IMG/VR virus record: IMGVR_UViG_2690316131_000021
Direction: 5' to 3' (one strand)
Source: a virus
Taxonomy: Duplodnaviria; Heunggongvirae; Uroviricota; Caudoviricetes
Length of the DNA stretch: 20,803 nucleotides
In this document: piece by piece, positions 9,065 to 10,063 of the stretch
Layout of the letters: each line of letters begins with the position of its first letter
How positions within the stretch are numbered: position 1 is the stretch's first letter
Notes under the pieces: generated by a model
Told to the model about the DNA's origin: nothing
Seen by the model: the letters and a program-made list of their open reading frames with translations, nothing else
The model's database searches: none
Position numbers and translations under genes: made by a program

Positions 9065-10063
9065 TTGGAAATCAGCACGGCGGTTATTCATTCCGAAGAA
9101 GATGCTTTGCGTTTTGTTGAGATGTACATCGCTGGGCAAGATCTTCCTGATGGAATATCATTTGAAGGGTGGCCTAACTTAACCTTCCGTCTTACTGGTG
9201 ACAAATTTCATGGCAGTTTGACTCCTTCTGTCATGAAGGGTTTTGTTGAAATGCAGGCCCAAATAAACCGAGCTTATGCATTGTTAAAGTACGGAGTTCC
9301 TGACCCAAGAAAGCTTTCAAAAGAAGAGAAGGAAGCTATCGAAATTCAGGTGAATGTTGAGAATGGCTCGTCCTTGATAGAAGTTAATATGGATGGGTTC
9401 ATGGGTGAGGTTATACAAACTGCGGTGAGTAAAGTGGGCCCTCAAGAGATCGTTATTACAGTTTTAGGGGTAGCTCTTATATGGGGCGGCGTCGTCCTAT
9501 TCAAAAAATATCTAGAAGACCGCAAAGAGATTCGCATGGCAGAAGTAAAAAGCGAGTCTGAGCGTGAACACCTTGCGACCATGCGCTTCATGTCTGAGCA
9601 GGAAACAAAACGAAGTGAATTATTGACTCAGATTATTAGCGAAAAACCCAAGCTAGACAACATGGAAAGACTTGCTCATGACGCAAAAACCGACATAGTT
9701 AAATCATTTGTCAAGGCTGATACAGCTCAGATTGATGGCGTTGTATTGGATGCAGATCTATCCAAAACCCTCACTACAAATGCAAGGCGGAAATCAATGG
9801 AGATCCGCCTTGATGGAAATTATCGCATTGAAAAGGTTGACTCCACTGATCCAGAGAGCTTCAAAGTGCAAGTGAGAAATGTTGACTCCGATCTAAGAAT
9901 ATCGTGCATAGTACAAGATGTTTTTCTCGACGCATCCGAGCATAAAAAAGCTCTTCAGCAAGCTGAGTGGGATAGAAAACCAGTTCATTTGTCAATCAAC
10001 GCAAAAGAACTAGATGGTGAAATAAAGTCCGCGATAATACTTTATGTCAAAGAGATAACATAA
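9065..10063 (+). CDS. Unknown 332-aa protein with one predicted transmembrane segment, in the rexAB position
   Basis: AT-rich ORF directly after cI, same strand, TTG start with AGAGG SD; hydrophobic stretch IVITVLGVALIWGGVVLF; followed by a terminator. Confidence 0.6.
   Translation: MEISTAVIHSEEDALRFVEMYIAGQDLPDGISFEGWPNLTFRLTGDKFHGSLTPSVMKGFVEMQAQINRAYALLKYGVPDPRKLSKEEKEAIEIQVNVENGSSLIEVNMDGFMGEVIQTAVSKVGPQEIVITVLGVALIWGGVVLFKKYLEDRKEIRMAEVKSESEREHLATMRFMSEQETKRSELLTQIISEKPKLDNMERLAHDAKTDIVKSFVKADTAQIDGVVLDADLSKTLTTNARRKSMEIRLDGNYRIEKVDSTDPESFKVQVRNVDSDLRISCIVQDVFLDASEHKKALQQAEWDRKPVHLSINAKELDGEIKSAIILYVKEIT

Follow-up and report, generated by a model that had tools for sequence, protein, structure and literature searches.

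The gene between cI and pL

The IMG/VR virus record IMGVR_UViG_2690316131_000021, a 20,803-nucleotide stretch of Caudoviricetes DNA referred to here as the window, was identified from a map of open reading frames (ORFs) and from domain scans as a lambda-like prophage in reversed orientation relative to the standard lambda map. Directly 3' of its immunity repressor gene cI, on the same strand, lies a 332-amino acid (aa) ORF at positions 9065–10063, which is the subject of this study and is called the ORF below. We find that it is an accessory cassette carrying a member of a large and widely distributed protein family, and we propose that its product is a prophage-encoded anti-phage protein acting at the inner membrane. 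For this membrane-acting defence reading as a whole we see the chances as evenly balanced, while an anti-phage role of any kind, entry exclusion included, seems to us fairly probable. The features of the region are as follows.

8007–8210, minus strand: cro-like repressor gene, divergent from cI (HTH_3, E = 4e-11; ORF map)
8248–8284: operator-like sequence on the oR side, between cro and cI (inverted repeat with the oL side, 37 nt, 73% complementary)
8341–8994, plus strand: cI-type immunity repressor gene (HTH_3 and Peptidase_S24, E = 9e-29; ORF map)
8968–10103, plus strand: mobile cassette, comprising the last 27 nt of cI, the 70-nt spacer, the ORF and the terminator (boundaries from blastn)
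8995–9064, plus strand: AT-rich spacer of 70 nt between cI and the ORF, including the Shine-Dalgarno sequence GAGG at 9054–9057
9065–10063, plus strand: the ORF, 332 aa, TTG start, member of PHROG 6191 (ORF map)
10071–10096, plus strand: intrinsic terminator closing the cI-ORF transcription unit (6 GC pairs and a T-run; −12.1 kcal/mol, z = −2.2)
10276–10312, plus strand: oL/pL region, with the operator-like sequence common to the oR side and a promoter-like TTGACT-17-TACTAT at 10283–10311
10560–10943, plus strand: N antiterminator gene, first in the pL operon (N_peptide, E = 2e-15)

This layout agrees with an original prediction, made from the sequence of the window, that the ORF stands directly behind the repressor gene in the slot which holds rexAB in lambda and ends at a rho-independent terminator before pL. 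The repressor is of the HTH_3 and Peptidase_S24 type (its gene has an alternative upstream ATG at 8272), and the order cI, gene, terminator, oL/pL, N matches that of lambda. The terminator hairpin at 10071–10088 (CCCGGC/GCCGGG) is followed by UUUUCUUU and lies approximately 195 nt ahead of oL/pL. The pL promoter falls inside the 37-nt sequence that is repeated in inverted orientation between cro and cI, which fits shared oL/oR operators. The 70-nt spacer between cI and the ORF lacks any terminator-like site and does not fold stably (z = +0.54), and read-through from cI is therefore the simplest expectation for expression of the ORF.

Translation of the ORF starts at a TTG codon 7 nt downstream of the GAGG, an arrangement that was kept in all 19 distinct orthologue upstream regions compared, and RefSeq gives the same 999-bp coordinates in other genomes, where the product is the hypothetical protein WP_000406300.1. 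An artefactual ORF was considered and rejected, because the protein is kept at full length across hundreds of sequence clusters.

The base composition of the ORF (41.9% G+C, compared with 46.2% for cI, 49.7% for N and 48.0% for the window) represents a modest dip within a generally AT-rich immunity region. The original prediction had described a clearly more AT-rich island, a contrast that proved overstated; a neighboring ORF has a still lower G+C content. That ORF, of 156 aa (11002–11472, plus strand), lies just past N and is the most AT-rich gene of the region (36.3% G+C; 29% at third codon positions); it has no Pfam or PADLOC match and is a second cargo gene of undescribed type, located in the pL operon. 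The rare codons pointed out in the same prediction held for ATA, which is enriched in the ORF (12 of 333 codons vs 2 of 218 in cI), and failed for AGA (5 of 333 vs 5 of 218).

Mobility, family and genomic context

The clearest sign of mobility came from a blastn comparison in which the 1,136-bp segment 8968–10103 was 99.9% identical in a prophage of E. coli MS 196-1, with unrelated flanks. There the cassette follows a repressor only about 19% identical to the cI of the window, in line with the earlier suggestion that the gene was horizontally acquired cargo. The transferred unit consists of 97 bp of upstream sequence, the ORF and the terminator, and in the window its first 27 bp form the 3' end of cI. 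Among IMG/VR contigs, proteins at least 98% identical to the ORF product were found behind four repressor types. The slot itself is variable. With the same repressor and pL flanks it is empty in vB_EcoP-683R2 and holds an NYN-domain gene in phage 2B8, while phage ev017 has a two-gene unit with DUF1828 (matching the PADLOC candidate PDC-M24B at E = 5e-10) and phages 2G7b and Stx2a_WGPS8 have other hypothetical genes between cI and pL. As it is found in some phages and missing from others that are otherwise alike, with the flanks conserved, and as it has its own terminator, the ORF is a genuine single-gene accessory cassette (moron).

Close copies of the gene are rare. It was found in 9 of 5,426 complete E. 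coli genomes, in every case at 99.8% identity or more, and copies at 90% identity or more occur in Salmonella, Klebsiella and Raoultella, where they are always named 'hypothetical'. A survey of 185,579 species-representative genomes yielded 5 loci. Such sparse and patchy occurrence is typical of accessory conflict genes.

At the level of the family, the ORF product has a single match, a full-length one to PHROG 6191 (annotated function unknown; E = 1.1e-137, residues 4–331 against positions 6–334 of a 338-position profile). A word-indexed search recovered 122 homologous proteins, and a profile search recovered 1,550 cluster representatives at 50% identity, 600 of them with E ≤ 1e-30; nearly all homologues are 320–350 aa long and align end to end. 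That the protein belongs to no recognised family, as had been predicted, was confirmed with Pfam, NCBIfam and PADLOC models (PADLOC-DB v2.0.0, copy dated 2023), none of which matched it, and with PDB sequences, which gave no match by phmmer or profile search. Among 44 diverse relatives there was also no consistent Pfam or PADLOC match, the scattered PADLOC matches all having E ≥ 0.002. A sub-threshold Pfam match to aRib (E = 0.003) was dismissed, and otherwise there was no Pfam match at E ≤ 1.

The predicted lack of resemblance to the Rex proteins was likewise upheld: hhalign comparison of the family profile with lambda RexA and RexB gave probabilities of 0.1% and 0.2%, and homology to either was rejected on this basis together with the lack of any PADLOC match in the query or its 44 relatives. 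A Foldseek search against BFVD returned three weak full-length matches (E ~ 1e-5, TM 0.27–0.33), one of them a 'DUF6575 domain-containing protein'. DUF6575 is listed among defence domains (PMC9519451). No family member matches the DUF6575 Pfam model or any PD-system hidden Markov model, and since the supplement of that study did not tie DUF6575 to a comparable system it was left as a weak lead. In the libraries and papers that could be searched, the PADLOC copy being that of 2023, neither the family nor its architecture is described.

The genomic context of these relatives is the strongest evidence bearing on function. In a survey of 78 IMG/VR loci, the gene lay directly 3' of an HTH and Peptidase_S24 repressor gene, on the same strand, at 17. 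The repressors of these 17 loci are only 19–69% identical to each other, save one near-identical pair at 96%, and across several phage lineages family members follow no fewer than 11 different prophage repressors. In a Pasteurellaceae prophage, whose homologue is 47% identical, cI reads divergently from cro and is followed by a KilA-N protein gene and the homologue, and the KilA-N protein (locus L102, 4090–4941) matches the PADLOC candidate PDC-S22 at E = 2e-124. In an Acinetobacter prophage (34%) cro is followed divergently by cI, an HSDR_N restriction-endonuclease-like gene, a small ORF, the homologue and a GAF-GGDEF gene; the HSDR_N-like gene of this type of repressor operon is at 6185–7357 of locus L097. 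The KilA-N and HSDR_N neighbors within repressor operons suggest small multi-gene defence clusters behind cI. Moraxella phage Mcat17 (33%) has an S24 repressor gene and then the homologue, while in a P2-like prophage (49%) a gene for a 135-aa HTH_3 repressor-like protein and a 145-aa ORF precede the homologue, and the latter converges with tail gene D. Escherichia phage phi458 carries directly 3' of its CI gene the 348-aa hypothetical protein Orf11 (locus L105, 3471–4517), a remote full-length homologue (hhalign probability 98.7%, E = 1.6e-16, 21% identity), so that a divergent branch of the family occupies the same slot.

A second location was more frequent still. At 45 of the 78 loci, and in further examples from Salmonella and Pectobacterium, the gene sits in the interval from Q to the lysis genes and is read from the opposite strand, with its stop codon 12–14 nt from that of Q. 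In this orientation it is not transcribable from pR or pR' and would have to rely on a separate promoter. The Q-slot orthologues are preceded by a block of about 100 nt (locus L033, 3774–3876, with equivalents in L031–L093) that is at least 80% conserved, and the sequence further upstream is unrelated. The block contains a hairpin with a T-run, adjoins a bidirectional terminator and is found again near Q or the holin gene in over 200 phages of the lambdoid and Stx groups; Rfam had nothing above threshold for it. It is probably a late promoter/terminator region belonging to the other strand and not part of the family gene. Shigella phage SfIV has a different gene, encoding the 356-aa hypothetical protein gp49 (locus L113, 1711–2781), in the same position and orientation beside this block, which suggests that the interval from Q to the lysis genes is a second hot spot for opposite-strand cargo.

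Homologues were also found in Mu-like prophages, beside P2 tail genes, and beside a Type ISP restriction-modification enzyme in an Oceanospirillaceae integrative element; in Caballeronia the homologue is a lone chromosomal gene. Taken across the phage loci, the gene order shows a gene apparently placed for transcription with the immunity repressor or independently of it, and never in early-lytic or late operons. This comparative context, with its repressor-linked and Q-slot positions and its restriction-type and candidate-defence neighbors, strengthens a defence reading without proving it.

Predicted architecture and proposed function

An AlphaFold2 (AF2) model built from 44 sequences (pLDDT 86.7, pTM 0.69) together with the family alignments divides the protein into four parts.

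9065–9424, plus strand: N-terminal alpha/beta domain, aa 1–120 (AF2 pLDDT 77–95; conserved W36-P37, T53-P54, Q64, L84, E88 and G101-S102-S103)
9446–9505, plus strand: single hydrophobic helix, about aa 128–147 (Kyte-Doolittle 2.33; W140-G141-G142 near-invariant; C-terminal flank rich in K/R)
9506–9715, plus strand: charged helical stalk, aa 148–217, the least conserved region (AF2 model and conservation)
9785–10060, plus strand: C-terminal OB-fold, aa 241–332 (conserved R241, G251, Y253, W302 and R304)

This architecture of N-terminal alpha/beta domain, one hydrophobic helix, helical stalk and C-terminal OB-fold is fixed in the family. The single hydrophobic segment of the original prediction was recovered, at residues 128–146, and in the model it sits within a long helix. 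The C-terminal half had been described as coiled-coil-like, but it is only partly helical (residues 148–217). Residues 241–332 are no coiled coil; they are beta-rich and have the features of the OB superfold, with a small hairpin followed by a five-stranded closed beta-barrel and a helix between strands 3 and 4. In an alignment of 252 homologues and the query, both terminal domains are similarly conserved and the stalk least, with near-invariant residues at Q64, L84, G101-S102-S103, R241, G251, W302 and A323.

One hydrophobic segment in a conserved position was found in each of 254 family members, with a mean Kyte-Doolittle value of 1.75, and on this sequence evidence the ORF product is likely membrane-anchored. 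The 15 residues after the segment contain on average 4.05 K/R vs 1.9 in the 15 before it, and the C-terminal flank is the richer one in 83% of the members. By the positive-inside rule this bias would place the stalk and OB-fold in the cytoplasm, in which case the folded, signal-less N-terminal domain of 125 residues would, unusually, need to be exported. The reverse topology would be easily made, yet it runs against the charge bias.

The mechanism that we propose begins in the lysogen, where the ORF would be transcribed by read-through from the repressor gene, presumably from pRM, with termination before pL. Its product would be anchored in the membrane by the one transmembrane helix, and the OB-fold and stalk, probably cytoplasmic, may recognise a conserved infection cue by binding a ligand such as phage nucleic acid or a DNA-protein intermediate. 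Recognition would be relayed by the glycine-rich transmembrane helix, so that the protein oligomerises and the membrane ceases to function, and the resulting membrane failure would abort the infection, which would make the protein a one-polypeptide functional analogue of RexA and RexB together. We favor such a sensor-effector abortive mechanism because the OB-fold, in its probable cytoplasmic location, keeps arginine and aromatic residues, because the helix is glycine-rich with a near-invariant W-G-G, and because at both main locations expression appears to be linked to lysogeny. The conservation of both terminal domains across very different hosts and phages would point to a universal cue such as nucleic acid.

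Several observations weigh against a membrane-acting defence protein. The 2023 PADLOC database has no match to the ORF product, and literature searches by accession, on defence hot spots in the lambdoid cI-N interval and on OB-fold/transmembrane defence proteins returned nothing on the family. Promoter searches found no consensus sigma-70 promoter in 8968–9064 and no promoter ahead of the orthologues in the Q slot. Neither the ORF product nor the family alignment shows a catalytic motif, and the two globular domains are about equally conserved, without the hypervariable sensor domain of many defence proteins. Hydrophobicity across the family is only moderate, 28% of the members having a segment with a Kyte-Doolittle value below 1.6. 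Some homologues are lone chromosomal genes beside metabolic genes, and association with moron slots would also fit virulence or conversion genes.

Superinfection exclusion at the envelope is the main rival to the abortive mechanism, from which the evidence here does not separate it. An inner-membrane protein could block entry of the incoming genome, like P22 SieA, HK97 gp15 and T4 Imm, or tether a DNA-binding domain at the injection site in a SNIPE-like manner without cleavage, and the cell would survive; we regard this as unlikely. The K/R bias, which puts the C-terminal half in the cytoplasm, argues against it, and the family has no homology to any PHROG exclusion family. Known exclusion proteins are also usually small and taxonomically narrow, whereas this family conserves both domains from Enterobacteria to Acinetobacter and Moraxella and across P2-, Mu- and lambda-like phages, a breadth that suggests a universal target and not an ejection protein specific to one phage. 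A gene for lysogenic conversion or prophage maintenance, serving envelope physiology, stress tolerance, host fitness or the lysis-lysogeny decision of the phage itself, would have nothing to do with defence. It would be consistent with the non-defence cargo that moron slots also carry, with the lack of a match to known defence families, with the lone chromosomal homologues that lie beside metabolic or sugar-nucleotide genes, with the homologue followed by a GAF-GGDEF signalling gene and with two evenly conserved domains that bear no arms-race signature. Against such a role stands the presence of the gene in no fewer than four lineages of temperate phages and in bacteria both environmental and host-associated, which makes a niche-specific virulence role unlikely, as well as its recurrence beside restriction-like and candidate-defence genes. 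Its rarity and patchiness among the E. coli and species-representative genomes (9/5,426 and 5/185,579) are those expected of a frequency-dependent conflict gene, and we consider a conversion or maintenance function no more than a doubtful alternative. Still further from the data is a protein that is not integral to the membrane at all, its helix buried in a soluble oligomer, acting as a cytoplasmic nucleic-acid-binding factor that might insert only on activation. This is highly improbable, as the 18-residue stretch IVITVLGVALIWGGVVLF is uniformly apolar (Kyte-Doolittle 2.33) with no polar face, and as the position of the segment is conserved in the 254 members, in each of which it is the sole segment of its kind.

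If the protein protects against phages, it would represent a new membrane-anchored OB-fold architecture in bacterial immunity, and it could help explain how a Rex-like outcome arises from a single polypeptide. A more far-reaching and quite tentative proposal, which we think will probably not hold in full, is that the ORF would be the first example of a single-protein defence family, widespread but previously unrecognised (about 1,550 clusters at 50% identity), with sensor and effector in one bitopic membrane protein, in which the OB-fold would read phage nucleic acid at the membrane and drive membrane failure or block genome entry. At least four unrelated temperate lineages would then have independently wired the gene to the immunity repressor, so that it is expressed in the lysogen and silent while the phage itself grows lytically. 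If the protein is not protective, the association of its large conserved family with lysogeny still calls for an explanation. Prophage genes co-expressed with the repressor are a proven source of exclusion systems (RexAB, BstA), and to our knowledge the lambdoid cI-N hot spot has not been systematically mined. The cassette is a compact, directly clonable object of 1.1 kb, and the comparative signal, with the same protein behind many repressors, is unusually clean.

The remaining window and comparison with known systems

Outside the immunity region, the following genes of the prophage were mapped.

6979–7536, minus strand: replication gene O (ORF map)
7569–7865, minus strand: cII (ORF map)
18315–19385: lambda-type integrase gene, arm-binding domain present

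Homologues of gam, bet and exo follow N and were named from their translations and the annotations of their matches rather than from domain scans. The prophage ends with the integrase gene next to the host gene ybhC, which begins at 19520 (region 18315–20803), and this neighborhood is, we assume, that of the lambda attachment site. The O gene appears as two ORFs, of 185 aa and 124 aa, that overlap each other (6665–7536, minus strand). Alignment with lambda O revealed a 28-bp deletion near 7147, in the ori iteron region, that shifts the frame and removes approximately one iteron. The prophage may be replication-defective, or a repeat may have been collapsed in the assembly.

Comparison of the ORF product with OB-fold proteins, including SilF/CusF-like proteins, the B subunits of AB5 toxins, SSB/PriB/RecO and the anticodon domains of class IIb tRNA synthetases, gave sequence identities of 6–18%. 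The matches favor no one OB subfamily and so give no basis for naming the ligand, and none of these proteins has the N-terminal domain, transmembrane helix or stalk of the ORF product.

Among membrane proteins, P22 SieA, HK97 gp15 and T4 Imm are single phage- or prophage-encoded proteins that protect the cell from other phages. The ORF product, which matched only PHROG 6191 in the PHROG search, showed no homology to them and differs in being much larger, in having two conserved globular domains and in occurring in a far wider range of taxa. SNIPE (PD-lambda-1) acts during genome injection (PMC13190303) and is comparable in its membrane anchor, which the ORF product probably shares, and in its helical region and C-terminal nucleic-acid-related domain. 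By Pfam and PADLOC searches, however, the ORF product has no DUF4041, GIY-YIG/T5orf172 or nuclease motif; its probable anchor is central (residues 128–146) whereas that of SNIPE is N-terminal, and it has an additional conserved N-terminal domain of 120 aa.

BstA of prophage BTP1 has an N-terminal KilA-N domain and is not known to have a membrane anchor. The ORF product differs from it in having no Pfam domain, KilA-N included, and the Pasteurellaceae prophage in which a KilA-N gene (PDC-S22) and an ORF homologue stand side by side behind cI indicates that the two are distinct modules. The systems are alike in consisting of a single gene directly 3' of a prophage repressor gene with a terminator of its own, which in BstA is also rho-independent, and the synteny of BstA is conserved across Gram-negative prophages (PMC8585504).

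The resemblance to lambda Rex lies in the shared slot and orientation between cI and oL/pL, with a terminator before oL/pL, in the presumed expression of the ORF in the lysogen and in what appears to be a common membrane component. It differs from Rex in that a single ORF, instead of adjacent rexA and rexB, lies between cI and the terminator, in the lack of any sequence relation and in its OB-fold, which is absent from Rex. RexB is a multi-pass protein, and Rex acts by depolarisation of the membrane, through which T4 rII and other phages are excluded. The ORF product, in contrast, has one hydrophobic helix, where RexB has been described as an ion channel (PMC8585504). Between cI and N lies a recognised hot spot of mosaicism, home to the abortive-infection systems RexAB and BstA, and in lysogens the promoter of the repressor shows high activity (PMC8585504). 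As a kind of element, then, a lysogen-expressed prophage cassette in the rex slot is already well known.

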